This document shows, piece after piece, positions 1,853 to 17,119 of a DNA stretch of 32,000 bases. This DNA is from Candidatus Hydrogenedentota bacterium. GTDB taxonomy: Bacteria; Hydrogenedentota; Hydrogenedentia; Hydrogenedentales; SLHB01. Location: NCBI GenBank assembly GCA_045863335.1, contig BTVY01000036.1, forward strand, positions 39,152-71,151, written 5' to 3'. How positions within the stretch are numbered: the first letter of the stretch is position 1; every line of letters starts with the position of its first letter. The notes under the pieces were generated by a model. That model searched no databases. It was not told the origin of the DNA and saw only the letters and a list, made by a program, of their open reading frames with translations. A program made the position numbers and the translations under genes.

Positions 1853-2053
1853 TTACTCGCCGCCGGAGTAACGACGGCTCTGAACGAATTCCCTGCTCTT
1901 GCCCGACATCGATTCGTCGACGACATCCATGCCCTTTTTCAGCAGATCTTCCGTTCGCGCATTGTTTGGATTGATCTCGGCGCCGAGGTCCACCGATTCC
2001 GTACCTCCTGTCGACTGTTGCATGCAGTTTGGTTCCATCAGGGTTTTGCTCAT
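1853..2053 (-). CDS. pup: Pup/UBact-family prokaryotic ubiquitin-like small protein (66 aa, C-terminal GGE)
   Basis: Internal ATG at 2053 of track ORF 1853..2107, with a strong RBS (AAGGAG, 6-nt spacer). Sequence MSKTLMEPNCMQQSTGGTESVDLGAEINPNNARTEDLLKKGMDVVDESMSGKSREFVQSRRYSGGE is small and polar, probably disordered. Its C-terminal half resembles Pup (..DDLLDEIDDVLEENAEDFVRAYVQKGGQ), and it ends in Gly-Gly-Glu. It lies directly upstream of a PafA/Dop-like gene. Confidence 0.7.
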   Translation of the reverse strand: MSKTLMEPNCMQQSTGGTESVDLGAEINPNNARTEDLLKKGMDVVDESMSGKSREFVQSRRYSGGE

Positions 2054-2244
2054 AGATAACTCCTTTTCCTTTGGATCGGCCGGCGCGCGTCCGTTGGTCC
2101 GCCACAACCGGTAGCGGCGGCTACGCCCGGCGAAGAAATGAGCAATCGCTGTGCCAGCATGGCATCGGGCTGAAGTTGTTGGAAATACTCCCGAGCGGGC
2201 TGCAGGCGGGACGGCGGATGGTTGAGTTTTGCTCGGTGAGTTAC

Positions 2245-2259
2245 TGGCATGCAGCCTGC
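2245..2259 (+). promoter_or_regulatory. Candidate sigma-54 (-24/-12) promoter upstream of the AAA+ regulator gene
   Basis: cTGGCATgcagcCTGCc matches TGGCAC-N5-TTGC with correct GG/GC spacing and two mismatches. It sits 66 nt upstream of the ATG at 2325. Motif match only. Confidence 0.3.
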
Positions 2260-2324
2260 CATTCCGTTGATTTAATTGGGATCTGCCGCTAGTATTGGGA
2301 AACTCAACTGGCTGCGGGGGCAGT

Positions 2325-3998
2325 ATGGAATACGCCGTTCTGGAATGCCGGCAAGAAGGACGAGAGCGCGTCTACCGTGCGACGCACGTAGATGCCGCCC
2401 ACGTCTTGCAGTGCGCGCGTGAGGGCCGCTTGAGCCTTTTTTACATCAGTGAGTCTCACGCTTCCGATCTTCAGAATACGGTACCGAAAATCCGGGACAT
2501 GGGCCGGAAACTTGCCGGAAAAGAATTGTCGCGGTATCTGGCCAAACTTGCGGAAAACGAAGTCGGAATTCTGAAAGGCGCGTACGACAGCACGCGGCAA
2601 CTGAAGCGGAGCGTGAGTGACGCGGTCAGGAAGTGCCACGAGCAACAACACGCGATCGTAGCCTTCATCACGCTGAAGCCGGCGCTGTTCGCTCAGGCGT
2701 GGAAAAAGGAAACCGCCAACGCCTCTCGCGACGACCGCATCGAAGCACGGGACTTGGAGTCTCCGGTTGAACGGACACTGCGCACCTTGGGCGAGATGGA
2801 CGTTCCGGAGAGTCTTGTCAAAGCGTATATTGGCAATTCGCCGTCAATCCGGCTGGTCCGCCAACTCATTCTCCGCGCAAGCGAACATGCCTACCCGGTG
2901 CTGATCCAGGGTGAATCGGGAACCGGCAAAGAGATAATCGCGCGCAGCATTCATGACTTGAGCCGTGACCACGGCCGCGGCCCGGAATTCCGGCCCATCA
3001 ATTGCAGCGCCATTTCCCCGTTCCTGTTGGAGTCAGAGTTGTTCGGGCATCTCAAAGACTCCTCGGATCGCGCGACCAAAGACCGCGACGGGCTATGGAA
3101 ATCCGCCAATAATGGCACGATCTTTCTCGATGAAATCGGGGACCTCAACCTGGACCAACAAGCAAAGATACTGCGGGTTCTAGACACGAACGCGGTGAAG
3201 CCGGTCGGCTCTGACGAGGAAGTTCCGGTGCGCGCCCGCGTGATCAGCGCGACCAATCGTGACCTCTATAGCATGATCCGCGACGGCCGTTTCCGGGAAG
3301 ACCTGTTCTTCCGTCTGAGCGTAATCCCCATTCAAACCCCGCCGTTGCGGGAACATCCCGAAGATATCCCGGTCATTGCACGTTGGCTGTGGACGGACAT
3401 CGCCGGGAAATCGGCGCCTTCGCTTTCGGGTGACATTCTGGCCTGCCTCAGCGAATACACGTGGCCAGGAAACGTGCGAGAACTAAAATCCATTCTGTCT
3501 TCGCTACGCGGATATTTCGGCGTCCGCGCCCGGACCCGGGATCAGTTTGAGACGGTCATGTTTCTCAAAGGGAAGCCTGCAGCCATTGCGACTCCCCCCA
3601 CCGCGCGACAATCGGCAACCCGCTCACGGGCCGAATCGTTCCAACATCTCCAACGGGTCGACGGCGTGCTGCGGGGCATCGAAGTCTTTCTGAAAGCGTT
3701 AAACGGCCGCCGCGCGATTCGGGATACGATGGACGCGCAAACCGCGCTCGGCGAGCGGCACCGCGAGCTGGCACATCTGTGTCAGAAACCTTTGCTGTTC
3801 GTGTCGCCCAAGACGTTTGACGCGGTTTACGGCGCCTGCGGGAAGATCGCGTATCTTTTGGATTCCCTGCAGACCGATTCTACGTCGTCGCCGCGACTTG
3901 CAACGCGGCAACTGGCCAAGGAAGTTCAAACTACGCGCGCCAAGGTGCAAAAACAGATTGACGGGCTCATGCCGAAACCGCGAAACCAGCGGAGCTAG
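2325..3998 (+). CDS. NtrC-family (bacterial enhancer-binding protein type) AAA+ ATPase/regulator with degenerate GAFTGA loop
   Basis: ATG at 2325 (GGGGG 5 nt upstream) inside track ORF 2295..3998. Motifs: VLIQGESGTGKE (Walker A), GTIFLDEIGDL (Walker B), GRFREDLFFRLSV, PPLREHPEDIP. The position of GAFTGA reads DSSDRA (3057-3074). A possible C-terminal HTH is ATRQLAKEVQTTRAKVQKQI. The N-terminal ~190 aa has no motif I recognise. Confidence 0.85.
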   Translation: MEYAVLECRQEGRERVYRATHVDAAHVLQCAREGRLSLFYISESHASDLQNTVPKIRDMGRKLAGKELSRYLAKLAENEVGILKGAYDSTRQLKRSVSDAVRKCHEQQHAIVAFITLKPALFAQAWKKETANASRDDRIEARDLESPVERTLRTLGEMDVPESLVKAYIGNSPSIRLVRQLILRASEHAYPVLIQGESGTGKEIIARSIHDLSRDHGRGPEFRPINCSAISPFLLESELFGHLKDSSDRATKDRDGLWKSANNGTIFLDEIGDLNLDQQAKILRVLDTNAVKPVGSDEEVPVRARVISATNRDLYSMIRDGRFREDLFFRLSVIPIQTPPLREHPEDIPVIARWLWTDIAGKSAPSLSGDILACLSEYTWPGNVRELKSILSSLRGYFGVRARTRDQFETVMFLKGKPAAIATPPTARQSATRSRAESFQHLQRVDGVLRGIEVFLKALNGRRAIRDTMDAQTALGERHRELAHLCQKPLLFVSPKTFDAVYGACGKIAYLLDSLQTDSTSSPRLATRQLAKEVQTTRAKVQKQIDGLMPKPRNQRS

Positions 3999-4028
3999 GA
4001 ACTGAGGGGATAGCTGGGGTCGGCGTTT

Positions 4029-4890: not shown

Positions 4891-6768
4891 ATGGCTGTGG
4901 AATCCGGGGACAGCAAGGCGACTGATTTATCCTCTTTCGCGCTTTTACCCAACGCAATTCCATATGAACTTCGCATCGGTGTAACCGGCCACCGGAAGCT
5001 TGCGGACCTAGATGCAGTGCGCCGGGCGGTGGATAGGTCGTTGGACCACATCCAACACGTCCTGGAGTCTGCGGCGGCGCAGCCCCACGGGGCGGAAGCG
5101 GGCGGACAGACGTGGAGCAAATGGTTTGACCAGGCTTTGCTGGCGGCGTTGCGGATGGTGTGGCGAGAGGTTCCGCCTTCGCCGGCAGTCGTGGATCCCT
5201 CCATGCGGACGCCGTTGCGGTGGTGCGCGGTGTCGGCGCTGGCGCAGGGGGCGGATGCCATCGTGGCGGAGGCGGTGCTGGCGCGGGCGGAATCGCGGTT
5301 GCGGGCGATCCTTCCGTTTGACGCCGACGAATACGGCACGGATTTCACGAGCCCGGAACATCTCGATACCTTTCATCGTTTGCTCGCGCGCGATCCCGGT
5401 GCGCGTGTGGTCGGTACGGTTGATGGTACGAAAGCGACCCGCAACCGCCTGTACCGCGAAGCGGGGGAGGCGGTGATTCACGGGTGCGACATCCTGATTG
5501 CGATCTGGGACGGCGAACCGGCGAAGGGCGAAGGCGGCACTGGGGACATCGTCCAGCATGCCTTGGAACATGGCCGGTTGACACTCTGGGTTAATGCGAA
5601 GAACCCAGACTCGCCGGTTAAACGGCTCGTGCCGCGCAGCGAGATCGAACGCGAGTCGGCAAAACCGATCCCGTGGACGACCGCCGAAGTCCCCGCGACA
5701 GCCAAAGCGTTGAGCCTTGGGTTCCACCAGATCTCCGCGTACAACCGGGACCTGGCGGTCGGCACGGACGCAGTCGCGGAGACGTTTGCGAAAAAACGCA
5801 CTACGATGCTGGAGGCGGCCCGGAAAAGCAACCTGCCCGAAACGGCGCTCGGGGAAGGGACCTGGACCGCGCTGGCCCAGTATTGTCGTGCCGATCAACT
5901 CGCCCTGCGCTACCAATCGCTTCACCTCCGTAGTGCGAAGGGGCTGTACCAACTCGCCGCGTTCGGCGTCACCGTCTCCGTAATTCAAGTCCTGTTCTTT
6001 CCCGCCTGGTACGGACTCGTCGCGCTGGAAGTCGCCGCCATGCTGGCCGTACTCATCATCCTGCGCATCTCGCGAAAGGAAAACTGGCACGAGAAGTGGC
6101 TGCACGACCGCCACTTTGCCGAGCGCTTGCGCGGCCGGATGTATCTCGACCTGCTTGGCGAAGACTCCGCGCCAGGCGACGCGCGGGCGGCTGCATCGCT
6201 GGCATTCTATAGCCGGCCCGCGGACTGGGTGACGCTGGCTTTTGCGAATCTGGAACCGCCGTCGACTCGGCCCGCTCAGAGCGGTGCGGAATGGATCGCA
6301 CTCCGCGATTTCATTTACGCAAACTGGGTCAACGCCCAGGCGAAGTACCACATCGACAATGCGGAACGGAAGGTGGGGCCGCCAAAACGCACCCACTGGA
6401 TCGGGGCGGGGTTATTCACCGCGACGCTGTTGGCAGCGCTGTTGCACGCCATCGGCGTGGGTCACGGCTCCCACGGAGACCACCACGGCATCTCCACCGT
6501 CACGGCGCTCCTATTTGCGACGACCGTGCTGCTTCCCCTCTGGGGCGCAACCTTGCACGCCATCGACACCCTGCACGATTGGCACCGCATCGCCAGCCGT
6601 TCCGAACGCATGGGCCGCCAGCTCCAGAACGTCGCTGAGGGTCTCAAGAATGCCGCGACTCCAGAAGAAATTCGGCGCCAGGTCCGCACGGCCTACGAGA
6701 TCATGGCCACCGAAAACCAGGAATGGGCCGCGTCGCTGGCCTTCCGTGGACCGACTTTGCCTGCGTAG
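4891..6768 (+). CDS. SLOG-like Rossmannoid domain fused to two SLATT-like 2-TM modules (4 TM helices)
   Basis: ATG with GAGGGA RBS. The N-domain has YpsA/LOG-type signatures: RIGVTGHR, SALAQGADAIVAEAVL, RAILPF, DILIAIWDGEPAKGEGGTGDIV. TM pair 1 (LYQLAAFGVTVSVIQVLFF / WYGLVALEVAAMLAVLIIL) is followed by ENWHEKWLHDRHFAERLRGRMYL. TM pair 2 (WIGAGLFTATLLAALLHAIGV / TALLFATTVLLPLWGATLHAI) is followed by LHDWHRIASRSERMGRQL. The domain names are assigned from remembered family patterns, not from a search. Confidence 0.6.
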   Translation: MAVESGDSKATDLSSFALLPNAIPYELRIGVTGHRKLADLDAVRRAVDRSLDHIQHVLESAAAQPHGAEAGGQTWSKWFDQALLAALRMVWREVPPSPAVVDPSMRTPLRWCAVSALAQGADAIVAEAVLARAESRLRAILPFDADEYGTDFTSPEHLDTFHRLLARDPGARVVGTVDGTKATRNRLYREAGEAVIHGCDILIAIWDGEPAKGEGGTGDIVQHALEHGRLTLWVNAKNPDSPVKRLVPRSEIERESAKPIPWTTAEVPATAKALSLGFHQISAYNRDLAVGTDAVAETFAKKRTTMLEAARKSNLPETALGEGTWTALAQYCRADQLALRYQSLHLRSAKGLYQLAAFGVTVSVIQVLFFPAWYGLVALEVAAMLAVLIILRISRKENWHEKWLHDRHFAERLRGRMYLDLLGEDSAPGDARAAASLAFYSRPADWVTLAFANLEPPSTRPAQSGAEWIALRDFIYANWVNAQAKYHIDNAERKVGPPKRTHWIGAGLFTATLLAALLHAIGVGHGSHGDHHGISTVTALLFATTVLLPLWGATLHAIDTLHDWHRIASRSERMGRQLQNVAEGLKNAATPEEIRRQVRTAYEIMATENQEWAASLAFRGPTLPA

Positions 6769-6851: not shown

Positions 6852-6898
6852 GGCCGACCGGGGTCACGAACAGCGTTTTGGGACGGTGGGGATTCATC

Positions 6899-9421
6899 AT
6901 GGGCGTGAAGAAGATCGCAGTGCTTGGTGATGTCTGCGCGGACGTTCTGGAGGTATCAACGCCCTCCCGCAAACGGACGCTGAGCGAAACGGTATCGAAC
7001 TGGCGTCTCTATCCGGAAACATACCTCCACATGCTCCCCGGTGGCGCGTTGTTGCTGGCGGAGTTCATTCAAGCAGCGTGTGACGGTGAGGTTGTCGGCT
7101 TGGACGGTGTCGACCTCGACAAGCCTCAGCACGACCGTATCCTCCAATCCCACCTGAAACTCGGCACCTTCCCAAAGACTCTCGGCAGCAAAGAAACCAC
7201 GTTGCGGCTTCGACGGTACGCGGGATTCTCCGGCTCCGAAAATGCGCCACTGCTACCGTGTATCGCAAGCGCTAAGGACGTCTCGCTCCTCGTGCTGGAC
7301 GATCCGGGCAATGGATTCCGGTACGAGCCGTCTGCATGGCAAGCTGCCTTACGCACTTTGCCGAAAAGATCCCCGATTATCCTCAACATGTGCCGTCCAC
7401 TCATGAAGGGGCAATTGTGGGACTACCTTGCCAAGTCGTACCGCGACAATCTGCTGCTCGTCTTGAGCGCGGACGATCTACGGACGGTAGGCGTGCAGAT
7501 CAGCAAGCGCCTATCCTGGGAGCGTACGTCGAAAGATCTCGTTTGGCAGCTGGAGAACAACGTATTGCTTCGTCCGCTTCGTCGATGCGGTCATGTGATT
7601 GTGCGATTTGGCATTGACGCCGCCATATACACGCGAAACACAGGAAAGACGTCGCTGTCCCAACTGTGTTTTGATCCGTCCTCCGTGGAAGACGGCTTTG
7701 CGGAAACAATGCCCGGCACCATGCCGGGATTGACCTATGCCTTGGTCGCATCGCTCGCCGCTGCGATAGACCGGACCGGCAATTTCGAGGAACTGACAAG
7801 CGGAATTCACGCCGGAATTCGTAGTGCGCGCGCTTTGCTCCGTACCGGATTCAAAGTCGAGAACGCGGCCCCCCGTTATCCCATTCCGGAGATCTTTTCA
7901 CCAACCGACTCGGACAAAACCCGTCTCGGTTGTGTCGAAATCAGTCTTACCAAGTCCGGAAAGGATGCCGATCCGGGGTTCTGGCGGATACTGGACCAAC
8001 TCAGCGAAAAACGATTGGAGGAAATGGCCTTCCGAATCGTTCGCCAAGGCGTGGAGAGGTCGCTCGGCGAGGTACCGTCCGGCCGGTTCCGCCATCTTCA
8101 TACGGTCGACCGGGCCGAGATTGAGCACTTTCGCGCGATTCAGAATCTGATGCGGGAGTATGTAAGCCGCGAAAAAACCAAGCGCCCTCTTTGCATTGCG
8201 GTATTTGGGCCTCCCGGTGCTGGGAAGTCTTTTGGGGTCGCGGAAGTCGCAGAAACGGTGGCACCGGGCAAGGTCCGAATGATCGAGTTCAATGTCTCTC
8301 AATTCGATTCCCCGGACGATCTCATCGACGCGCTGCACAAAGTCCGAGATTCCGTTCTCGAAGGGCAAATTCCGTTAGTGTTCTTCGACGAGTTCGATTC
8401 CGGCTACGGCGGAAAACTGGGGTGGCTGAAGTACTTCCTCGCGCCCATGCAAGACGGTAAGTTCAGGGACGGCGAATCGATTCACCCCATTGGCAAATCC
8501 ATCTTCGTGTTCGCCGGAGGCACTCGCGACTCGTTCGAGGCATTCTCCGCGGATGGGGTCCCAGGAACGGCCGAAAGTGCGGGGTGGTTCCGCGATGCTA
8601 AAGGTACCGACTTCGTGAGCCGCCTGCGCGGTTTCGTGGACGTGCTCGGCCCAAATCCGCGCGACGAGAAGGATAAGGTGTTTATCGTTCGACGCGCCAT
8701 GTTGCTTCGATCCCTCTTGGAACGCCTCACACCCCAGTTGGTCGACGACGAAGATTATGCGCGTGTTGATCCGGGCGTGCTGCGCGCACTCATCCACGTG
8801 CCAGATTACCGCCACGGCATACGCTCCATGGAAGCGATACTGGATATGAGTTCCTTGTCGAACGCCCTGTCCTTCGAGCAGGCGGCGCTTCCTCCAGCAA
8901 ACCAACTACGACTCCATGTGGACCCGGAGATCTTCGAACGATTGGTACTTCAGGACGCTTCGTTTGGCGCCGTCCGGGAGCAGCTCGCACAGGCAATTCA
9001 TGAACGCTTTGTCCGAGATCAGGCCGGAAACCGGCCACAGAGTGACGAGGCCATGCAACCGTGGGATGAATTGCTGGAGACCTACAAGGAAGCCAACCGG
9101 CGCCAAGCGGACCACATCCCGGAGAAGCTGAAAGCCATTTCCTGCAGTTTCACTCCTTTCACTCAACAACCAGTTTCCCCCATTAACTTCTCGAAAAAAG
9201 AGATCGAGATAATGGCGCGAATGGAACACGACCGGTGGGTACGAGAACGCCTGGAGGAAGGGTATACCCCAGGTCCCAGAAATCCGATCAAGAAAACCAG
9301 TCCATATTTGGGATCGTGGGAGACACTGGACGACAAGGTGAAGGAATTTGATCGCAATACAGTTCGGGCCATTCCGGATCTGATGACCAGCGTAGGTTTC
9401 CGGATCTATCGGTTGAGCTGA
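6899..9421 (+). CDS. Three-domain protein: ribokinase/PfkB-like N-domain, classical AAA+ ATPase, C-terminal RyR domain
   Basis: ATG at 6899 (GGTGGGGA RBS) inside track ORF 6878..9421. The N-domain has KIAVLGDVCADV, GGALLLAEFI, LLLVLSADDLRTVG and GHVIVRFGIDAAIY in PfkB-like order, but the GAGD anion-hole position reads PGTMPGLTYAL. AAA+ motifs: IAVFGPPGAGKSFG, PLVFFDEFD, IFVFAGGT, DFVSRLRGFVDV. C-terminus: NRRQADHIPEKLKA .. ARMEHDRWVRERLEEGYTPG..TSPYLGSWETLDDKVKEFDRNTVRAIPDL, a bacterial RyR-domain pattern. Confidence 0.7.
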   Translation: MGVKKIAVLGDVCADVLEVSTPSRKRTLSETVSNWRLYPETYLHMLPGGALLLAEFIQAACDGEVVGLDGVDLDKPQHDRILQSHLKLGTFPKTLGSKETTLRLRRYAGFSGSENAPLLPCIASAKDVSLLVLDDPGNGFRYEPSAWQAALRTLPKRSPIILNMCRPLMKGQLWDYLAKSYRDNLLLVLSADDLRTVGVQISKRLSWERTSKDLVWQLENNVLLRPLRRCGHVIVRFGIDAAIYTRNTGKTSLSQLCFDPSSVEDGFAETMPGTMPGLTYALVASLAAAIDRTGNFEELTSGIHAGIRSARALLRTGFKVENAAPRYPIPEIFSPTDSDKTRLGCVEISLTKSGKDADPGFWRILDQLSEKRLEEMAFRIVRQGVERSLGEVPSGRFRHLHTVDRAEIEHFRAIQNLMREYVSREKTKRPLCIAVFGPPGAGKSFGVAEVAETVAPGKVRMIEFNVSQFDSPDDLIDALHKVRDSVLEGQIPLVFFDEFDSGYGGKLGWLKYFLAPMQDGKFRDGESIHPIGKSIFVFAGGTRDSFEAFSADGVPGTAESAGWFRDAKGTDFVSRLRGFVDVLGPNPRDEKDKVFIVRRAMLLRSLLERLTPQLVDDEDYARVDPGVLRALIHVPDYRHGIRSMEAILDMSSLSNALSFEQAALPPANQLRLHVDPEIFERLVLQDASFGAVREQLAQAIHERFVRDQAGNRPQSDEAMQPWDELLETYKEANRRQADHIPEKLKAISCSFTPFTQQPVSPINFSKKEIEIMARMEHDRWVRERLEEGYTPGPRNPIKKTSPYLGSWETLDDKVKEFDRNTVRAIPDLMTSVGFRIYRLS

Positions 9422-9428
9422 TCTGCAA

Positions 9429-11150
9429 TCAGGATTGCTGCATTCCCGCCACTACCAACCGCGGTATGTTACGGACCGCGCTCCGATCGTACTCCTTGAT
9501 GGCGTCCGGCAGTTCGTCATAGGGAACGAGATACGGTGTTTGCCGCCGGCCCACGTCTTTTTCTCCCAACGTCCAACCCGCCAGAAACCGCTCCGCGTTC
9601 CAGCGTGCGTGCTCCATACGCGCAAGTGTTTCCACCCGATCCTCGGGAATCTCCGGCGTCTCCTCCAGTTCCGCGATTGTTCGCACGCGGTACCCCAATG
9701 CGCGAAGCTTCACGGGGATGTGGTCGGCCTGTTGCCGATTGGAGTCCTTGAATTCCGGCGACAACCGATCCCAATCTTCTGTTGATGGACTCTTCTGGCC
9801 GCCGCGCTCCCGCTGTTTGGCCACGTAGTCCTCGTGGATCAGGCGGGCCAGCTTGTCCAGCCCGTCACCCTCCACCATTTCCCAAGAACACGACGAACGC
9901 ATCGATCCGAAGCAGTACATGTTCTGCCCATTCGTGGACGGGGAGAACAAAGCCGCGAGCCCGGAATCCTGGTTTATCCGCACGAACACCGGTACGCTGT
10001 CTCGTTCGACATGACGGCGCACGCTCAGTGCGTACTGCGCGTTTCGCGAATCGTTGTCAAAGCAGATGGCAACACTGCAGATTTCGGCGGGGTCCTGCGC
10101 GATCTCGGCGATACGGCGAAGCGTAAGTGAATCGTCGCATTCGGCGTGGACAAACTCGATATCGCAGACATTGTCCAGCTGGGGGTACCTGACATATAGC
10201 CCCCGCCTTCTCGCCTCCGCCGAATGGTCGACAACCGTGACAGCCAGCCGTTTCCCGTTGGCAACGTGGCCGATCTTTGCTGCTTGAATGAGTAGACTCT
10301 CACCCATCTGCCCCAAACCAAATAAAACCAATCGGATTCGCCGGGGGTCATCCGGGCCAATGTATTCGCGATCCAGGGGATGATCGCGCAATAGAAGGCG
10401 TGAAGCGTTTTCGTAGGAGTTGAAGACCGACACGTTGAACTTCTGTCCGGTCTCGCGGAGCATCGGGTGATCTTTGAACAAAGCCGCAAACGTGAAGTCC
10501 ATCACCTGGACTAGACAACAAAGACGGTGACGGTTGGCGTGCGTTTGGCTCTCATCGAGTATTTCCTTCGTGCGAAGCGCGATCTCGATATTGACCCCGT
10601 CGTTTCCGCAAACCGCTATGGCCGTGCGCGCCCGTTCCACATGCGCCCGGCGAAGGATCGCCTGATGCGTTGCGTCTCCCGTCACCAAGAGAATCCCGGA
10701 GTCCCGCGCGACCGTAAGGCCATCGGCATGAGGATTGGATTCGATGATCGCCACTTTGTGCCCCCGGCTTCTGCATTCCTCCGCCAACTGCAAGCCCCTG
10801 CGCCCGAGTCCGCAGATCACCACATGATTCCGGGCGAGCGCGAGTTGAAGTCCACGCCAGCGATTCCGGATGAATTCAACGAAGATCCGCAGAACCGCCG
10901 ACGCCGCAGTCAACGGCGCAAGAATCCGCGCCACTTCCAGTTGCCACGGAACCGGACCTTCCACGCCTCCGGATTCCATGGTAAAGAGCTGCCAGTCCAG
11001 GTAAACGACATCAAGCACGGTGAGGTTGTATCCCTTCAATTCACCGTGCCGGACAAATCCAACATATCCGAGTACCAACGAGGCTGCTGCAGCGACCGCG
11101 ATCACAATCCATCCACGGCTGACCCTCCACAGGCTTCGAAGTAGATTCAT
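9429..11150 (-). CDS. Membrane protein: 2 TM helices, two TrkA-N/RCK-type Rossmann domains, C-terminal RyR domain
   Basis: Probable start is ATG at 11150 (MNLLRSLWRVSRGWIVIAVAAAASLVLGYVGF; GGTGGAG RBS). The 96 upstream codons of track ORF 9429..11438 are Arg-rich nonsense. The second hydrophobic segment is LEVARILAPLTAASAVLRIFV. Rossmann motifs: HVVICGLGRRGLQLAEE..KVAIIE and IRLVLFGLGQMGESL. C-terminus: NRQQADHIPVKLRA .. ARMEHARWNAERFLAGWTLG..QTPYLVPYDELPDAIKEYDRSAVRNIPRL. Confidence 0.75.
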   Translation of the reverse strand: MNLLRSLWRVSRGWIVIAVAAAASLVLGYVGFVRHGELKGYNLTVLDVVYLDWQLFTMESGGVEGPVPWQLEVARILAPLTAASAVLRIFVEFIRNRWRGLQLALARNHVVICGLGRRGLQLAEECRSRGHKVAIIESNPHADGLTVARDSGILLVTGDATHQAILRRAHVERARTAIAVCGNDGVNIEIALRTKEILDESQTHANRHRLCCLVQVMDFTFAALFKDHPMLRETGQKFNVSVFNSYENASRLLLRDHPLDREYIGPDDPRRIRLVLFGLGQMGESLLIQAAKIGHVANGKRLAVTVVDHSAEARRRGLYVRYPQLDNVCDIEFVHAECDDSLTLRRIAEIAQDPAEICSVAICFDNDSRNAQYALSVRRHVERDSVPVFVRINQDSGLAALFSPSTNGQNMYCFGSMRSSCSWEMVEGDGLDKLARLIHEDYVAKQRERGGQKSPSTEDWDRLSPEFKDSNRQQADHIPVKLRALGYRVRTIAELEETPEIPEDRVETLARMEHARWNAERFLAGWTLGEKDVGRRQTPYLVPYDELPDAIKEYDRSAVRNIPRLVVAGMQQS

Positions 11151-11363
11151 GACACAACTCCACCGTGATGCCCTGAGCATCATTTCCCCGATTTCCCCTG
11201 ATGCGCCAATCTCGCGTGTGGCCACGGGACTATACCATAGACCAGCATTCGCTACAGTCCCGTCTCTTCGACGGTTCCTGGCCCGGCCAATTCCAAACTT
11301 TCGACGATTCGGCAGCGAATCAGATGCCGTATTGATTCTGCTGCGTCTTTGCCGTACCTCGCG

Positions 11364-11369
11364 TATAAT
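11364..11369 (+). promoter_or_regulatory. Candidate -10 box (TATAAT) for the lipoprotein gene
   Basis: Perfect TATAAT 86 nt upstream of the ATG at 11456. There is no convincing -35. Confidence 0.25.
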
Positions 11370-11455
11370 GCCTCTGGGCACGAACGAAGCTGGGGCTAGG
11401 GCCGCTCCCCGTACCGGGGTGCGCGGGTCAGACGTCAATGCTTGGGGGATCCGTC

Positions 11456-12460
11456 ATGCGGAAACTCTCGGAATACGTACTTGGCAGGGAACTACAGTTC
11501 GGTACCGTTTCATCCAGGACACGGCTGCAGCGCTTTCGATCTGTTGCCGGCCGATTCTTGCTCGCTCTCGCAGCCACGAGCATACTGAGTTGCGCACCTG
11601 CCAGCGATGGTTACTCGGTGAGTCAACTCCAAACCAGCGCCGGAACCGAATACCGCATGGAGTGGACGGAAGACGGCGAAACGCGCCACTTCATGACCCT
11701 GATCGAATCCGGTGGCGCCTTGGCGCTACGCCCCCACCCCGGGGTCGACCCGAATGGCTGGGGATCGAGTTGGTACCCGCAGCCCTTCCTGGCGGGGGCG
11801 GTGCTCAGTCACAGTGGCGTGGACTCGGCCATCGCAACAGCGGACGGAATTGAAGTTGCTCTATCCGGAGACGTATCAAGCGACGCCAACGGCACCTACG
11901 GCGCATGGTCGCTCGACATGGTCTTTACCTACGACGCGGTCGCAAAGAAGGTAGCAGGGGACGGCGTACTTTCCATCGCGCTGGATGGACCGATCGGTGC
12001 CGGTACCGGCGATTTGAATCTTTACAGAATCGCGTCGAACTACCTGGACGACGTCCCCTTGCTCAGCGGCGGCATGGGCGATACCGGGGATATGGACTAC
12101 GCGGCGGTCGTCGCCAACGGCTTCAACTTCGACTGGTACCCGCCAATCCAACCGGCCCACTTCCCCTCGGACATGACCGACACCCTTTCCATTGACGTCA
12201 AAGGCCAATACAACGAGGTCGATTCCGCCACGCAGGGCCACGCGCCAATTGCTGCCGCCTATAAGCCCTCATTGAAAGTCGTGCTGAGCACGGACCAGTC
12301 GATCCTCACCTTCGGCGGGTTCTACGACACAAGCGTCGCACAAGACTTCTGGGAAGACAACGTCGGCATCACACCGCTCCTGCGCGTCGGCACAGGTGGA
12401 ACCAATTTCGATTTCGACGTGGACTTCGAATCGATCGCCCTGGCAGGCGACGGGGCGTGA
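11456..12460 (+). CDS. Putative secreted lipoprotein, function unknown
   Basis: ATG at 11456 (GGGGGA RBS) is preferred over 11438. Hydrophobic stretch FLLALAATSILSC with a lipobox-like L-S-C. The mature part is Gly/Asp/Ser-rich and beta-rich looking. No family recognised. Confidence 0.55.
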   Translation: MRKLSEYVLGRELQFGTVSSRTRLQRFRSVAGRFLLALAATSILSCAPASDGYSVSQLQTSAGTEYRMEWTEDGETRHFMTLIESGGALALRPHPGVDPNGWGSSWYPQPFLAGAVLSHSGVDSAIATADGIEVALSGDVSSDANGTYGAWSLDMVFTYDAVAKKVAGDGVLSIALDGPIGAGTGDLNLYRIASNYLDDVPLLSGGMGDTGDMDYAAVVANGFNFDWYPPIQPAHFPSDMTDTLSIDVKGQYNEVDSATQGHAPIAAAYKPSLKVVLSTDQSILTFGGFYDTSVAQDFWEDNVGITPLLRVGTGGTNFDFDVDFESIALAGDGA

Positions 12461-12598
12461 TTAGCTATGATCGAAATACAGGCTGCAGACGAGTGGGTCT
12501 TGGCCTTCGAGGGATCTGTTGCTGTGCTCAATCGAGCGATTCGGTGGGGATGACGTGATCGACCAGCTTACTTGCCCGCAAGTGGACTCCAGGAAAGG

Positions 12599-15500
12599 AT
12601 GACCGAGGTGAAACCCCGCGTTGCCATGATCAGCAGTACGATGCTTGACCTCCCAAATCATCGCAAGAAAGTTAAGGACGCATGCCTAAGTCGCAATATA
12701 CTTCCTATGATGATGGAGAACCTTCCGTCCAGTGATGTCGAAGCGGTTCAGGTGTCTCAAGAGATGGTTGAGCAAGCCAACGTATACATCGGTGTATTCG
12801 CGCACCGTTACGGTCACGTCCCAGATGGATACGACGTTTCAATTACCGAGTTGGAGTTTGATCGCGCACTCGAGCGGAAGATTCCTATCCTGGTTTTTAT
12901 TATGCACGAGAAATACCGGATCCTCCCCGGTACGGTTGAATCGGGTGCAAAGTCCAAACTCGATTCACTGAAGAAACGCGCCTGTGATGGCCGAGTCTGC
13001 AGAACATTCAAGTCGCCCGAGAGCCTAAAAGCAGAGGTCATCAACGCTCTCGCGGACTTGGAACGGAGGGAGACGACGGCAGGACTGCCAATAGCATCCG
13101 AGTGTTATCCCTTCGAGTTGCTATCGCCCGATTGCCGACTGGTACGAGCGCCTGACTCATCGCCAGACAATCCTTTTCCTTCTTGGCAAGAGTACGTCGA
13201 GCAAAAGGTCCCCAAACTGAAAGCAGATGAAATCATACAGGAGCGTCTGAGGTTGCACGGTTGGGCGTCTGTCCTGGATGCCGCCTCTGTTGGAAAGACT
13301 ACGTTGTCGCTTCGGTTAGCGAGCGCTCCCGAGCGGCGGGATAACCCATCCTACTATTTCGACCTTGCCTCCATCGCGGCAATGGACGAGGGCTCTTATC
13401 CGTTGGCTGCATTACGACGGCTTGCCCAACCGGGAACATTCCTAATTCTTGACAATATCCATCATCAGCCAGAACTTGCGCGCGAGCTCTGGACCCTATG
13501 GCGTGCACTAGCTAAGGGAAGCCAATTGCTATTGTTGGCTACGGACATTTTTCGTCCGGTTTTGACCGCGCCCGTCCAGGACCTTGCTTTCTTCAAGAGT
13601 CATTCGGAAAACCCGTCCATAGCACTCCGTCCAGAACCTGAAGACCTATGGCACATTGTCCAGTATCTGCACGAACGGTTGGCCGGAAAAAGTCATGGCG
13701 CATTGCCCAATCCACCCGCGCATGTTCTTACTCGATGGCATCGCGACTTCAGGTGTGCTCTCGGCGCTTTTTGCATCTGGGCCATTGCCGGAATGAGCGA
13801 ATTCAGGCAAGGGTGCTGGAACGTGTCTTTGGAAGCTACCGCTGAATGGGTGCGGAGAAAGTGGCTCAGTGGACTACCCAAATTAGAACGGGAGAACCTC
13901 GAATGCCTCGCGGTATTCGGCGCACAGGAATTTGAGATACAGGTGCCAAGTAACGCGCTGCCTCATCCCCGCAAGTTGGAAAAGCTATTCGCGCGCGATT
14001 TGGTATCGCGCACCCAACGGGGCGGACTCAACCCGTACAACAGCTACGCCCTGCGTGAACCAAGCTGGGGCCAATTGATTATTGCCGCACTCGACGCGCC
14101 GCCTGATGAAGAAGCTGTAATCTTTGACGCGGCGTTACGCGACCCGATCACTGCGTCGATTTTAACTTCGCGGTTGCGGAGCTTGGGCCGTATAGAGTAC
14201 ACAGCGCGTTTGTGGGAACATTTAGCAAAGCAGCCAATTCTCTTCGCGACTCGGGCGACAAAGGTCAAGCTCGAACTCTGGATCCACTTGCTTCGTGCGG
14301 CAAGGGATCAGGATAAAGCGGAACTTGCCGAGCGGCTATGGAACGCATGGGAATCCGAGCCAGAAGCGCTGCTTAAACGAGCTTGGGAGGCGCAACTACA
14401 TTCCTTAGCAGCCTTCGTCGATTCGGCGGAGAAACACGGGCGCGAAACACTCGCCACATTGCTATGGGAGAAGCTGGAGGAGCGTCGTGACGAGTTGTGT
14501 GAACGAGCCATGGAAACCTCACTTGAACAATCAGCGATCTTCCTGGCGATGGCCCGGAAACACGGACACGCAACACTCGCCGTGGCGTTGTGGGACGCGG
14601 TGGAGAAACAGCCCAACGAACTGGCGAAACGAGCCGTGGAAACCTCCCTTGCGTCTACGGCTCGCTTCCTGGCGACGGCCATGGCGCATGAGCGCTTCAC
14701 ACTGGTCGCAACATTGTGGGACAAGCTGGAGGAGTTGGAGAAGGACGACGATGAATTGTCCAAACGAGTCATGGAATCCCCCCTCGACGCTACGGCTCGC
14801 TTCCTGGCGACGGCCATGGCGCATGAGCGCTTCACACTGGTCGCAACATTGTGGGACAAGCTGGAGGAGTTGGAGAAGGACGACGATGAATTGTCCAAAC
14901 GAGTCATGGAATCCCCCCTCGACGCTGCGGCTCACTTCCTGGCGATGGTCGCGAAAGGACGCGCAACACTGGCTACAACGTTGTGGGACAAGTTGGAGAA
15001 ACAGCCCGACGCGTTGGCGCAAAGAGCCTTGGAAACTTCGCTGGAAAAGTTGGCTGGTTTCCTGGCGACGGCCAAAGATCAAGAACGCGCAACCTTGGTC
15101 GCAACGTTGTGGAACAAACTGGAGAAACATGCCGATGCGTTGGCTGATCGAGCTTTGGAAATTTCTCTCGAACATCTGGCCTATTTCCTGGCGACGGCTA
15201 GGAACCACGAGCGCGCAACACTGGTCGAAACGTTGTGGGACAAGCTGGAGAAACAGCCCGACGCGTTGGCGCAAAGAGCCTTGGAAACTTCGCTGGAAAA
15301 GTTGGCTGGTTTCCTGGCGACGGCCAAAGATCAAGAACGCGCAACCTTGGTCGAAACGTTGTGCCGGAGTCTGGAGGAGCAACCAGCAAAACTTGCAAGC
15401 AGAGCAAGAGAAATGAATACCGCCAGTCTCGCGGGATTCCTTATCAATGCGCCGGAGACTCTTGCAAAGTGCGCTATCACAGGATTCACACAAGCCGATT

Positions 15501-16321
15501 GGCAGATTCACGTTGATAGCGGTCGCCCGCTTGTCGGCGCCGCGGCCTTGGCGCAACGTTTTGGCGAGTTAGGTCGCGCTGATCTCCAGGATACAATCGC
15601 GGAGAGCCTTCTGCGGCGCGCCAACTGGCGCGACTTTGGGTGGGTCGATGCGGGGATACCGAGGGTGGCATGGTTACTGGCTAACATTCCGAGCACAGCG
15701 ACTGAAGCTGTACCCCATTTCATCGACGCCATCTGCACAAGGAATTGGTTGAGACGTCAATACAAATATGGAGCGACTGGGCCGATTGCTGGCGGCCTCA
15801 GGGAACTGGCGATGCATCAGCCGCCTGAGATTTGTCAGAGGTTTCATGATTGGAGTTTGGGCCTTCGTTTGAAGCAGGAACTCGAAGAGTTTGCCAATAC
15901 CACTCCGGAGAAGCGGCACCTTACCGTGCAACTTCTGGGTTCCAGCCAACTCGCCGGCTTCCGAATACCACGGGAGTGGCTGCACGGTTTACCCATGGAC
16001 ACTATGGGGCAGCTACCGCTCGCTGCTCTGCCGCATCGTCCCGACGCAATGAAAGTCGAAGACTGGCAATTCAATCTCTGGCTCGGGTTGCGTGTCGTTG
16101 CGTCTTTTGGTTACGCATCCCTTCTAGTCTCCCCTGACGTCGTCGCTGAAACGCTCCGGCTTTGGCAGCTGAATTTGGCAGAGACTTCCGCCACACCGAC
16201 GGCAACTGCCAATAGGGTGAACGCGAGCATGGTTGCGTGGCTCGAAGAATGCGTTGCAACAAGAGATGGAGAACTTGCTCCAAACCAACAGCGGCTGTGG
16301 GAGCTATCAGGCTTCCCGTAG
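12599..16321 (+). CDS. STAND-type P-loop NTPase with N-terminal DUF4062 domain and C-terminal alpha-helical repeat array
   Basis: ATG at 12599 inside track ORF 12572 (TTG)..16321. The N-terminus is a very good DUF4062 pattern: RVAMISSTMLDLPNHRKKVKDACL..PMMMENLP..VYIGVFAHRYGHVP..SITELEFDRALERKIPILVFI. P-loop: LDAASVGKTTLSLRLA. Walker B-like: FLILDNIHH. About 10 repeats of 42-45 aa follow (..FLATA...ER.TLV.TLWDKLE.....L..RA.E.SL..). Confidence 0.8.
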   Translation: MTEVKPRVAMISSTMLDLPNHRKKVKDACLSRNILPMMMENLPSSDVEAVQVSQEMVEQANVYIGVFAHRYGHVPDGYDVSITELEFDRALERKIPILVFIMHEKYRILPGTVESGAKSKLDSLKKRACDGRVCRTFKSPESLKAEVINALADLERRETTAGLPIASECYPFELLSPDCRLVRAPDSSPDNPFPSWQEYVEQKVPKLKADEIIQERLRLHGWASVLDAASVGKTTLSLRLASAPERRDNPSYYFDLASIAAMDEGSYPLAALRRLAQPGTFLILDNIHHQPELARELWTLWRALAKGSQLLLLATDIFRPVLTAPVQDLAFFKSHSENPSIALRPEPEDLWHIVQYLHERLAGKSHGALPNPPAHVLTRWHRDFRCALGAFCIWAIAGMSEFRQGCWNVSLEATAEWVRRKWLSGLPKLERENLECLAVFGAQEFEIQVPSNALPHPRKLEKLFARDLVSRTQRGGLNPYNSYALREPSWGQLIIAALDAPPDEEAVIFDAALRDPITASILTSRLRSLGRIEYTARLWEHLAKQPILFATRATKVKLELWIHLLRAARDQDKAELAERLWNAWESEPEALLKRAWEAQLHSLAAFVDSAEKHGRETLATLLWEKLEERRDELCERAMETSLEQSAIFLAMARKHGHATLAVALWDAVEKQPNELAKRAVETSLASTARFLATAMAHERFTLVATLWDKLEELEKDDDELSKRVMESPLDATARFLATAMAHERFTLVATLWDKLEELEKDDDELSKRVMESPLDAAAHFLAMVAKGRATLATTLWDKLEKQPDALAQRALETSLEKLAGFLATAKDQERATLVATLWNKLEKHADALADRALEISLEHLAYFLATARNHERATLVETLWDKLEKQPDALAQRALETSLEKLAGFLATAKDQERATLVETLCRSLEEQPAKLASRAREMNTASLAGFLINAPETLAKCAITGFTQADWQIHVDSGRPLVGAAALAQRFGELGRADLQDTIAESLLRRANWRDFGWVDAGIPRVAWLLANIPSTATEAVPHFIDAICTRNWLRRQYKYGATGPIAGGLRELAMHQPPEICQRFHDWSLGLRLKQELEEFANTTPEKRHLTVQLLGSSQLAGFRIPREWLHGLPMDTMGQLPLAALPHRPDAMKVEDWQFNLWLGLRVVASFGYASLLVSPDVVAETLRLWQLNLAETSATPTATANRVNASMVAWLEECVATRDGELAPNQQRLWELSGFP
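14200..15440 (+). repeat. Intragenic tandem array of ~126-135 bp (42-45 codon) units, with near-identical and identical copies
   Basis: 14655-14791 is identical to 14790-14926 (135-bp period, perfect). 14977-15111 matches 15229-15363 at a 252-nt offset with 2 mismatches (14993/15245 and 15102/15354). The other units are diverged at DNA level but share the LW.KLE / FLA.A pattern. Confidence 0.95.
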
Positions 16322-16402: not shown

Positions 16403-17119
16403 ATGGCCCGTAGTTCCACGAGACATACGATTCTGCCTATGCTCTCACATCGGTTCGTGCTGCGGAGGCATACGGAGTATGTCCTGAGTCTGGCGATGTC
16501 GGGGGATGGGCGGCGTTTGGTGAGCGGGGCGATGGACGAGACGGTGCGAGTTTGGGACGCCGGCACCGGCCGGAAGGTGGTGGTGCTTCGTAGTCAGTTG
16601 GTGTTATGCGTTGCGATTTCGCCGGATGGGCGGCGCATCTTCATCGGCAGTAAGGCGGGAACGATCCGCGTGCGGGACGCGGAAACGGGCGAACGGCTCG
16701 CGACGATGCGGGGGCATCGCACTGGTATCTACAACATGTTCTTCCAGAACGGAGACCGGGAGCTGGTGACGTGGGACGTAAATGACGAATCGCGGGTTTG
16801 GGATGCCGCGACCGGCGAATGCCTGGCGTCGGGGCAGCTTCCCGGCACGATGTGGGTCGGCCCGAATGTGCCAGAGGATTGCCCCTATCAATTTACCGAT
16901 CGCGGACAACCCACTGTCATTAGTGACGCCGCCACGGGCGAACCCATAGCCGTGGTCGACCAATCCTTCTCGAGTATTGCCGCCTCGAATACCGGCCGCT
17001 GGGCGGGATCGAACGGTTCGGAGATCTACGTCTTCGACATGGCTGACATCGGCGCGTGCGGCGAGGCTGCGCCGCGAACGTCTGTTCTCCGAGTTCGGCA
17101 TTGGTTACCGAGGCGATGA
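16403..17119 (+). CDS. Short stand-alone WD40-repeat protein (about 4-5 blades)
   Basis: ATG with GAGAGGGAA RBS, 81 nt after the STAND gene. Repeats: HTEYVLSLAMSGDGRRLVSGAMDETVRVWDAGTG, VLCVAISPDGRRIFIGSKAGTIRVRDAETG, GHRTGIYNMFFQ..DRELVTWDVNDESRVWDAATG. Confidence 0.8.
   Translation: MARSSTRHTILPMLSHRFVLRRHTEYVLSLAMSGDGRRLVSGAMDETVRVWDAGTGRKVVVLRSQLVLCVAISPDGRRIFIGSKAGTIRVRDAETGERLATMRGHRTGIYNMFFQNGDRELVTWDVNDESRVWDAATGECLASGQLPGTMWVGPNVPEDCPYQFTDRGQPTVISDAATGEPIAVVDQSFSSIAASNTGRWAGSNGSEIYVFDMADIGACGEAAPRTSVLRVRHWLPRR

Follow-up and report, generated by a model that had tools for sequence, protein, structure and literature searches.

Two genes lying tail to tail in the window (the whole 32,000-nt stretch of DNA analysed here) share a C-terminal module, a nucleotide-binding domain of the ryanodine-receptor (RyR) type: gene A, composed of a ribokinase-like fold, an AAA+ ATPase and the C-terminal module, and gene B, composed of a GsuK-like 2TM pore, two RCK/TrkA-N-type domains and the C-terminal module. 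The initial annotation had observed this common module, and it is real. We believe, with a probability of about 0.55, that the module is a shared receptor for an ADPR-like signal, controlling several effectors of an uncharacterised conflict-type (probably anti-phage) gene neighbourhood. The genes and their domains are:

6899 to 9421, plus strand: gene A, 840 aa; the reading frame opens at 6878 (6878 to 9421, 847 aa), and homologs start at M8, that is, at 6899
6899 to 7978, plus strand: ribokinase/PfkB-like fold of A, residues ~1–360, from Foldseek
8096 to 8968, plus strand: AAA+ ATPase region of A, with Walker A GPPGAGKS and Walker B VFFDEFD; Pfam core at 8201–8404
8987 to 9418, plus strand: RyR module of A, ~144 aa in two half-repeats; Pfam RyR covers 9203–9406 only
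9429 to 11150, minus strand: gene B, 573 aa; the reading frame spans 9429 to 11438 (669 aa), and homologs and the called gene of locus L083 (573 aa) start at M97, that is, at 11150
10836 to 11147, minus strand: TM1, pore-helix-like segment, loop and TM2 of B (model helices 2–39, 45–57 and 69–105)
10536 to 10823, minus strand: TrkA_N (RCK) domain of B, Pfam 78.2 bits (cut-off 23.8)
9861 to 10340, minus strand: second Rossmann/RCK-like domain of B, residues ~271–430, from the secondary structure of the model and the tandem-RCK GsuK/TrkA alignment
9432 to 9863, minus strand: RyR module of B; Pfam RyR covers 9450–9644 only

The identity of the two modules, put by eye at ~35–40%, was borne out by BLASTP of the last 140 residues (48/131, 37%, E 1e-29). 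The span of 9053–9782 given for the pair was too short, the module being ~65–80 nt longer on each side, and the first helix (IHE.[YF]) was absent from that description. A second BLASTP HSP (25%, E 2e-5) runs crosswise, matching the N-terminal half of one module to the C-terminal half of its counterpart, and so points to a duplication within the module. Pfam RyR (PF02026) scores 43.1 bits in A and 51.2 bits in B against a cut-off of 27.4, with the match limited to the second half of each module, the first half-repeat being too diverged for Pfam. Sequence matches of the modules in the PDB are the repeats of RyR1–3 and a Bacteroides thetaiotaomicron RyR protein; in Foldseek, ~160–190 columns map onto the whole human RyR3 Repeat12 (R12) domain, including its ATP and ADP complexes. 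The “bipartite” motif is thus one complete, self-contained RyR/R12-type domain of two half-repeats, a clamshell of ~140 aa. Both models match the two-repeat, nucleotide-binding clamshell of animal R12 (human RyR3 848–1055, with ATP, ADP or dantrolene), although the animal domain is longer, at ~200 aa.

On profile scores, the A and B modules form one distinct subfamily of PF02026. In cross-family HMM comparisons, a profile made from A alone gives B modules a median of 141 bits and a B-only profile gives A modules 158 bits, whereas generic RyR/RyDEP-like proteins reach 34–41 bits (maximum 52) against the same profiles. A sharp score gap is also seen around the subfamily, and the similarity of A and B goes beyond generic RyR likeness, as the initial annotation had supposed. 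The subfamily is matched by 2563 representative proteins at E<=1e-30. Elsewhere the module is fused to RelA_SpoT plus LSDAT_prok, to a DSP phosphatase or to TIR plus AAA; TrkA_N proteins with 2–6 copies exist, a sigma-54 activator carrying the module adjoins a B homolog in L087, and stand-alone copies occur as well, two of them immediately following A (loci L028 and L033) and 50–60% identical to A's own module. The two window modules have no particular in-genome kinship, their identity in this comparison (35%) falling at the 53rd percentile of A/B pairs drawn from different genomes.

Viral RyR-domain proteins act on 2'cADPR and 3'cADPR, which they either cleave or sequester (Lopez Rivera et al., bioRxiv 2026, PMC13232231): phage RyDEP, a homodimer via helices a1 and a4, binds and cleaves 2'/3'cADPR through H75, W78, H100 and D117, and others bind these signals at nanomolar affinity. 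All 138 aa of RyDEP (L084, 4664–5080) are collinear with the two modules, the alignment to each running the full length, and the protein belongs to the same domain family; W78, P101, L109 and D117 are invariant between it and the two window modules. Family-wide, H75 has its counterpart in 98% of A proteins and likewise in 98% of B proteins, W78 in 72–80%, and D117 in 87% (A) and 66% (B). At the position of H100, A carries Ser and B carries Thr, with variation throughout both families. The earlier proposal of a common ligand fits the collinearity with RyDEP, the retention of its ligand residues and the many output domains to which the module is attached in linked genes; the replacement of H100 speaks against it. 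Unlike RyDEP, the window modules are host-encoded and C-terminal on large proteins (an ATPase and a channel), and RyDEP scores only 25–36 bits against the A and B profiles, where A and B modules score 141–189; their likely role is that of a receptor rather than of counter-defence.

The two proteins carrying the module are quite different. At least 353 full-length homologs of A (~850 aa) all have the C-terminal RyR domain. The N-terminal fold in the AlphaFold model (pLDDT 75.8) is matched by Foldseek to HldA, ribokinase, nucleoside kinase and pseudouridine kinase (E 2e-7 to 1e-5, TM(target) 0.5–0.63); no Pfam family is found there even at E 5, and no kinase GAGD motif can be made out. The ATPase region has Pfam AAA at 25.7 bits (cut-off 21.2) and invariant Walker motif columns. 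Homologs of B have 560–630 aa, and its model (pLDDT 88.6) is closest in Foldseek to GsuK (E 7e-10), followed by the TrkA ring and MthK, with which it shares TM1, pore helix and TM2 followed by two RCK (TrkA_N) domains. It differs from these transport proteins in the additional RyR module, in its conflict-type gene neighbours and in the filter-equivalent loop, which is QLFTMESGG (family pattern QLF(T/S/V)(L/M)ESG) and not TVGYG, so that K+ selectivity should not be assumed. B also resembles the animal RyR in having an R12-type module on an ion-channel-type protein, but it has a GsuK-type pore, 2TM and gated by RCK domains, where the RyR/IP3R channels have six TM segments.

Around A and B lie four further genes of interest, while the right half of the window contains housekeeping genes:

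2295 to 3998, plus strand: sigma-54-dependent activator (Pfam Sigma54_activat, 3.9e-54), possibly linked to the A/B cluster
4891 to 6768, plus strand: SLOG-like/SLATT-like gene upstream of A, 625 aa, with a SLOG-like N-terminus (GVTGHR ... GGTGD) and a SLATT-like membrane half
12572 to 16321, plus strand: DUF4062 (TIR-like class; Pfam 7.6e-18) with a STAND-type NTPase and helical repeats, a candidate sensor or signal generator
16403 to 17119, plus strand: WD40-repeat reading frame, 238 aa (Pfam WD40)

The label of the 625-aa gene is a likeness drawn from the motifs and from weak Pfam/NCBIfam matches, to SLATT_3 (5.8e-4) and SLATT_1 (5.6e-4) on the membrane side and to the SLOG class by YAcAr (0.045) and, in family members, YpsA (0.0028) and Nuc_deoxyrib_tr (0.015). 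We compared ~160 related loci, being the best 80 of 336 A relatives and the best 80 of 454 B relatives and thus not a random sample. Neighbours were assigned from crude ORF calls, with BLASTP (E<=1e-3) to a small set of exemplar domains. Counted in this way, those of A in its 80 loci plus the window are SLOG-like genes with or without SLATT (22/81, the commonest), TIR (17), DUF4062 (14, that is, DUF4062-STAND genes in 13 loci besides the window), B-type (12) and WD40 (11), and those of B in its 80 loci are A (17–18), TIR (16), WD40 (11), and RelA, SLOG and DUF4062-STAND (10 each). RelA/SpoT-SLOG-RyR genes recur among the neighbours, a SLOG-like domain is fused to A in L073, sigma-54 activators lie near A in L005, L067 and L074, and L087 has NUDIX, isochorismatase and TIR genes beside its B homolog. 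In seven loci a Pfam-confirmed TIR_2 gene directly follows the B homolog, which is the Thoeris layout. This comparison suggests that the module is the common receptor of an undescribed TIR/SLOG-linked defence-type cluster.

Such a cluster would work as follows. A linked TIR, DUF4062 or SLOG-type enzyme would make an adenine-ribose nucleotide signal (ADPR/cADPR-like), which the RyR module would bind, one receptor type thus being attached to different outputs. In B, binding would open the GsuK-like RCK-gated pore, giving an ion leak or depolarisation; in A, the module would control the ribokinase-like AAA+ ATPase; elsewhere it would serve RelA/SpoT-SLOG proteins, TIR-AAA proteins, a phosphatase and a sigma-54 activator, besides occurring in stand-alone copies. 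The upstream SLOG-like/SLATT protein may be a further membrane effector or a signal processor. Against this reading, PADLOC reports nothing in the window for either gene or for their SLOG-SLATT neighbour, and A has no recognised partner in ~20 Clostridia-type loci. Burroughs and colleagues reportedly described “NTP-dependent conflict systems” of the SLOG-SLATT and STAND/WD40/TPR kinds in 2015. The neighbourhood resembles these systems (Burroughs et al. 2015; Kaur et al. 2020, PMC7159879) in its SLOG-like, SLATT, TIR-class, STAND NTPase and WD40/TPR-repeat components, and neither RyR nor TrkA is mentioned by Kaur et al. Thoeris with TIR plus SLATT (type VII, canonical cADPR) and with TIR plus an ion channel (type X) are experimentally verified defences (bioRxiv 10.64898/2025.12.03.692087), in a paper that, with its supplements, does not mention the RyR domain. 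The likeness to Thoeris lies in TIR genes directly beside B homologs and near A, in SLATT-like and channel-like effectors and in a plausible ADPR-type signal; the difference is that no Pfam TIR gene is found in the window, only DUF4062, and that the neighbourhood is a multi-gene one with AAA+ ATPase, STAND and WD40 genes.

Could the modules serve instead as protein–protein interaction domains, as the initial annotation proposed with its hetero-association? The module of A would then pair with B's, or with a stand-alone copy, and so recruit the ATPase to the channel. Homodimers are indeed formed by RyDEP and by the B. thetaiotaomicron protein, two or more RyR-module genes lie together in about one-fifth of A loci, and stand-alone copies follow A in L028 and L033. 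Each module, however, already contains two half-repeats and maps onto the whole R12 domain, so hetero-association is not needed to complete the fold; A lacks B in ~85% of its loci, and B lacks A in ~75%. We consider such pairing unlikely, the unexceptional identity of same-locus modules adding a point that does not bear directly on binding. It is similarly improbable that the modules are themselves enzymes, built-in erasers or threshold setters that hydrolyse cADPR-type signals as RyDEP does. Both window proteins, like most members of the families, retain the catalytic dyad (H75, D117), yet none of eight other phage homologs tested cleaved the signals (six bound them) despite good conservation (PMC13232231), the H100 equivalent is replaced, and attachment to a channel, an ATPase and a sigma-54 activator is what marks a regulatory sensor domain. 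Very unlikely, in our view, is ordinary physiology, B being a K+ channel with a housekeeping role, under the control of ATP, ADP or NAD, and A an unrelated ATPase, with no function in common behind their adjacency and shared domain. GsuK, MthK and TrkA are indeed nucleotide- or ion-regulated transport proteins, R12 of RyR3 binds ATP and ADP, and housekeeping genes fill half of the window; against this, the linkage of A, B, SLOG-like, TIR, DUF4062-STAND and WD40 genes recurs across many phyla of Bacteria and Archaea, in patchy, variable genomic contexts, and B has no TVGYG filter.

The junction itself offers a further explanation, namely that expression of A and B is coupled through overlapping mRNA 3' ends, whether antisense pairing or transcriptional interference is the means. 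As the initial annotation read it, the genes converge, from TGA at 9419–9421 to tca, the complement of TGA, at 9429–9431:

9422 to 9428, between the stop codons: 7-nt spacer (tctgcaa), of equal length but other sequence in L081, an 85%-identical relative
9425 to 9438: palindrome GCAATCagGATTGC (GCAATC-ag-GATTGC), judged a chance feature

The palindrome is present, but it is not the notable feature it was taken for, since such repeats are common by chance (2.2 per kb in the window for 6+6 inverted repeats with a gap of 0–4 nt; nine 6-nt inverted repeats within 9300–9560) and it is not kept in L081. As a hairpin it fails, the 2-nt loop being too short to form one. No terminator-like site was found at the junction, and it is reasonable to infer that the 3' ends of the two mRNAs overlap; a 173-nt metatranscriptome contig (9324–9495, depth 2.6) crosses both stops, strandless and very thin as RNA evidence, the sole run that covers the locus fully resembling DNA (flat depth, 185-kb contigs). 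Even with the 7-nt spacing kept in L081 and a second convergent pair in L163 (12-nt spacer), a regulatory role for the junction has little probability, because pairs in other lineages are mostly co-directional (A→SLOG→B, the commonest, or B→A) and sometimes divergent. Every orientation occurs; the convergent one, seen only in the window's lineage and in L163, is lineage-specific and not a conserved design, and it is, like the palindrome, incidental. In the close relative L082, A is absent and B converges on the SLOG-SLATT gene.

Gene A, which encodes a ribokinase-like fold, an AAA+ ATPase and a C-terminal RyR module, and gene B, which encodes a 2TM pore, two RCK domains and a C-terminal RyR module, converge exactly as the initial annotation read them: the TGA of A at 9419–9421 is followed by tctgcaa and then by tca at 9429–9431. 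The start of A is set at 6899 because its homologs begin at M8, and that of B at 11150 because M97 is the start both of its homologs and of the gene call made on a second assembly of this sequence. The two modules lie where they had been placed, with a true extent slightly wider than first given.

Genes A and B and their RyR modules
6878–9421, plus strand, ORF of A, 847 aa; gene 6899–9421, 840 aa
8987–9418, plus strand, RyR module of A, full extent (residues ~697–840)
9429–11438, minus strand, ORF of B, 669 aa; gene 9429–11150, 573 aa
9432–9863, minus strand, RyR module of B, full extent (residues ~430–573)

The likeness of the two C-termini, estimated at about 35–40% identity when the convergent pair was first noticed, is borne out: BLASTP aligns the last 140 aa of A and B over 131 aa, of which 37% are identical (E 1e-29). 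The "bipartite" pattern is an internal duplication, for BLASTP also aligns the first half-repeat of one module to the second of the other (25%, E 2e-5). Pfam RyR (PF02026) scores 43.1 bits on A and 51.2 bits on B, both above the gathering cut-off of 27.4, and in A and B alike the match covers the second half-repeat only. In the PDB sequence search, the modules match the RyR repeats of animal RyR1–3 and the Bacteroides RyR-like protein (3NRT); in Foldseek searches with AlphaFold models, they align over about 160–190 columns to whole R12 domains (6uhi, 6uhh, 9l9b), with TM(target) of 0.5–0.65. In human RyR3, each covers the entire Repeat12 domain with its two repeats, also in the ATP and ADP complexes, and each has the Repeat12-type build of two homologous half-repeats in one globular domain.

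Whether the likeness goes beyond that of any two RyR domains depends on the level at which it is read. A profile built from A modules only scores a median of 141 bits on B modules (145 on the window B), and the reverse profile scores 158 bits on A modules (170 on the window A), while generic RyR and RyDEP-like proteins reach 34–41 bits on the same profiles, with a maximum of 52. At the family level, then, the special likeness stands; for the window pair itself it does not, since its 35% identity in the multiple alignment falls at the 53rd percentile of cross-genome A/B pairs. Same-locus pairs in other genomes are likewise no closer than cross-genome pairs, which rules out that the modules were recently duplicated or homogenised by gene conversion. 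By sequence comparison, the modules of A and B are old members of a single, distinct RyR subfamily. In the module-profile database search, 39 of the top 40 matches score at least 125 bits, the exception being an 84-aa fragment at 100 bits, and the next matches score at most 76; the subfamily is large: of 1.84 billion proteins, 2563 representatives match at E ≤ 1e-30.

[quoted passage not shown] RyDEP (MN234187 gene 78, 138 aa) aligns over its full length with each of the two modules, which makes either of them a complete RyDEP-like unit. W78, P101, L109 and D117 are invariant in this three-way alignment, the H75 equivalent is retained in both window proteins, and the H100 equivalent is serine in A and threonine in B. 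Most of the pocket is kept through 195 A modules and 50 B modules: the H75 equivalent is kept in 98% of either family, that of W78 in 72% of A (the remainder mostly other aromatics) and 80% of B, and that of D117 in 87% and 66%, respectively; the H100 position is variable in both. A tblastn search of phage genomes with the module gave only two matches, both weak.

The module sits at the end of two very different proteins. The N-terminal ≈360 aa of A (AlphaFold model, pLDDT 75.8) have a ribokinase/PfkB-like fold, matching HldA, ribokinase and nucleoside kinases (E about 1e-7); this likeness is at fold level only, with no Pfam or NCBIfam family match, and the kinase GAGD anion-hole motif is not evident by eye, the corresponding stretch reading PGTMPGLTYAL, without an aspartate. 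The AAA+ core follows, with a partial PF00004 match (25.7 bits against a cut-off of 21.2) and Walker columns that are invariant in the family (GPPGxGKS for Walker A, VFFDEFD for Walker B), and the RyR module closes the chain. B (pLDDT 88.6) runs from TM1 through a pore-helix-like segment, a loop and TM2 into two RCK/TrkA_N-type domains (Pfam TrkA_N, 78.2 bits) and then the module. Its best structural match is GsuK (E 7e-10), an NAD/ADP-binding channel with the same layout of 2TM pore and RCK, followed by the TrkA ring and MthK (E 4e-7). The filter-equivalent loop of B reads QLFTMESGG (family consensus QLF.lesg...gp), not the K+ selectivity filter TVGYG. "Channel-like" is a fair description of B, and any K+ selectivity would be putative. 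Proteins of the "TrkA_N + RyR" type already carry an automatic annotation.

The gene upstream of A (4891–6768, plus strand, 625 aa) joins a SLOG-like N-terminus to a SLATT-like membrane half. Its two SLATT matches, SLATT_3 (20.6 bits, below the cut-off of 26.3) and SLATT_1 of NCBIfam (19.9 bits, below 41), are weak and consistent, and they fall on separate parts of the C-terminal half. The SLOG-class matches are all weak as well (YAcAr 0.045; in family members, YpsA 0.0028 and Nuc_deoxyrib_tr 0.015), with conserved GxTGHR ... GGT motifs. hhalign finds no match between the SLOG-like region and the LSDAT_prok-type region, nor does a PDB profile search with the SLOG-like family. For A, B and the SLOG–SLATT gene, PADLOC returns nothing and NCBIfam no useful name. 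At one locus (L073, 3288–6635), a single reading frame of 1115 aa joins an A homolog to the SLOG-like domain, or else this is an assembly or stop-codon artefact.

We examined the surroundings of the best 80 of 336 A relatives, spread across many phyla of bacteria and several archaea, together with the window, and of the best 80 of 454 B relatives, which lie at metagenome loci, many of them short. Neighbours were labelled from crude ORF calls by BLASTP to domain exemplars, themselves checked with Pfam.

Genes near A (81 loci: best 80 of 336 relatives, plus the window)
SLOG-like gene, short or fused to a SLATT-like half: 22/81
TIR gene: 17/81
DUF4062 gene, usually DUF4062-STAND: 14/81
B-type gene: 12/81
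WD40 gene: 11/81
RelA/SpoT gene: 4/81
sigma-54 activator: 4/81

Genes near B (80 loci: best 80 of 454 relatives)
A: 17–18/80
TIR: 16/80
WD40: 11/80
RelA-RyR: 10/80
SLOG-like: 10/80
DUF4062-STAND: 10/80

Both families are thus linked to TIR, DUF4062 and SLOG-like genes, the last, some with a SLATT-like half, usually only 0–20 nt from A. At L007–L027, in Clostridia and relatives, A homologs lie among variable neighbours with no recognised SLOG, TIR or B partner. At seven loci (L094, L106, L112, L140, L141, L154 and L161), a Pfam-confirmed TIR_2 gene lies directly downstream of a B homolog, with spacers of −4 to about 240 nt, an arrangement like the paired genes of Thoeris; the window itself lacks a Pfam TIR gene and has no PADLOC match. 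Other carriers of the module are RelA_SpoT+TPR+LSDAT_prok-SLOG proteins, a DSP phosphatase, a TIR+AAA paralogue of A and stand-alone proteins of about 160 aa, one of them at L033. Some RelA_SpoT proteins bear a RyR module at both ends, and some TrkA_N channel-like proteins (P0285, P0286, P0288 and others in the database), of up to 1298 aa, bear two to six in tandem. At locus L087, a sigma-54-dependent activator with a C-terminal RyR module (1934–4009) stands directly upstream of a B homolog, whose neighbours include TIR_2, NUDIX and isochorismatase (nicotinamidase-class) genes.

The linkage of A and B is conserved, and their orientation is free. The convergent pair with its 7-nt spacer is kept at L081, and L083 is the window sequence again, from another run; A is absent at L082 and L085, where B (84% and 57% identical, respectively) instead faces a SLOG-like gene tail to tail. 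At more distant loci, A and B are co-directional or divergent, the commonest joint layout being co-directional A→SLOG→B (L037, L048, L080, L115, L134, L153, L157 and others). A distantly related second convergent B/A pair, with a 12-nt spacer, lies at L163 (7941–12593). The weight that the initial annotation put on the mirror arrangement was misplaced, as was its stress on the palindrome at 9425–9438: inverted repeats of the 6+6 kind occur 2.2 times per kb in the window, which makes one here a chance-level feature, and this one, with a 2-nt loop and no T-run, is absent from L081, an 85%-identical relative, though the 7-nt spacing is retained there. We accordingly rejected it as a terminator or operator. 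No terminator was found at the A/B junction, so the transcripts probably extend into each other's gene. The RNA evidence for this consists of a single unstranded contig of 173 nt (depth 2.6) from a metatranscriptome run, X26, that spans the junction; the RNA-labelled run X1, with even, full coverage and contigs of 185 kb, is probably DNA.

The earlier idea of a common ligand fits this evidence. We favour, with a probability of roughly 0.55, a reading in which the module acts as receptor of an ADPR/cADPR-like signal: the signal would come from a linked enzyme of the TIR or SLOG class, its binding to the module would shut the clamshell, as the R12 structures, open and closed, illustrate, and closure would gate the B pore and switch the ATPase A, with the SLOG-like/SLATT protein as a parallel membrane effector or signal processor. 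Four other readings, which are not mutually exclusive, compete with it. RyDEP cleaves what it binds, and the A and B modules could be glycosidases of the same kind, erasing the signal rather than receiving it; the catalytic dyad of RyDEP (H75, D117) is kept in both, H100 is replaced in both, and we consider such a role improbable. We think it similarly doubtful that the A and B modules dimerise with each other: B is missing from about 85% of the A loci, and A from about 75% of the B loci.

Still less probable, in our view, is that A and B are ordinary nucleotide-regulated ATPase and transport genes. Against it stands the recurrent linkage of A, B, SLOG-like, TIR, DUF4062-STAND and WD40 genes. 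The same low standing goes to the overlap of the A and B 3′ ends being itself regulatory, for which one may cite the probable read-through of the junction, set beside co-directional and divergent pairs elsewhere. Returning to the receptor reading, a wider form of it is tentative at best: across bacteria and archaea, R12-type RyR domains might be immune receptors of TIR- or SLOG-derived, ADPR/cADPR-like nucleotide signals, directly gating the RCK-type channel of B (a prokaryotic counterpart of cADPR-to-ryanodine-receptor signalling) and also acting, within a single system of several effectors, on the AAA+ ATPase, on RelA/SpoT enzymes and on a sigma-54 activator, with the phage RyDEP sponges and glycosidases a captured host receptor.

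Thoeris types with TIR+SLATT and TIR+ion channel (bioRxiv 10.64898/2025.12.03.692087), SLOG/SLATT and STAND/WD40 conflict systems (PMC7159879) and RyR domains as cADPR binders (PMC13232231) are already known. In the literature covered, which is incomplete and does not include Burroughs et al. 2015, we found no published description of host-encoded RyR modules within such systems, or of the A family. What appears new, on the comparisons made here, is the shared sensor domain and the effector classes within nucleotide-signal conflict systems: the window locus and about 160 relatives suggest that a host-side RyR domain is a receptor common to several effectors, the proposed ones being channel, ATPase, RelA/SpoT, phosphatase and transcription-activator proteins encoded in linkage with TIR, DUF4062-STAND and SLOG-like genes. 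If so, nucleotide-signalling immunity would gain effector classes and a sensor domain that are new to it, the origin of phage RyDEP could be explained, and a RyR module on a 2TM channel would offer a simple bacterial model for how cADPR and adenine nucleotides act on ryanodine receptors, a matter of long debate.

Finally, the island in the window fits the neighbourhood pattern end to end, with, in order of start, the sigma-54 activator (2295), the SLOG-like/SLATT gene (4891), A, B, DUF4062-STAND (12572) and WD40 (16403); the remainder of the window is housekeeping. The only perfect sigma-54 −24/−12 box, TGGCACAGCGATTGC, lies at 2142–2156 on the minus strand, 140 nt upstream of the activator (2295–3998) and facing away from it, with no minus-strand ORF of at least 150 aa to its left; no sigma-54 promoter was found in front of the SLOG–SLATT gene, A or B. 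An ORF of 340 aa with a lipoprotein-like N-terminus (11438–12460), divergent from B, has no Pfam match and no relative among the 80 A loci, and so probably lies outside the system. Sludge or bioreactor samples contain the organism of the window; in several metagenome runs, a further contig of 671 or 967 nt has just the 19-nt stretches 8871–8889 and 9327–9345 of A in common with it, which suggests a diverged second copy or a strain variant in the same communities. The WD40 ORF (16403–17119) is, at 238 aa, possibly a truncated remnant, its counterparts in related loci having 700–1200 aa. DUF4062-STAND contains tandem coding repeats at 14627–15363 (135 nt ×2.4 at 95% identity and 126 nt ×3.2 at 77%), recently expanded helical repeats of 42–45 aa in the presumed sensor region.
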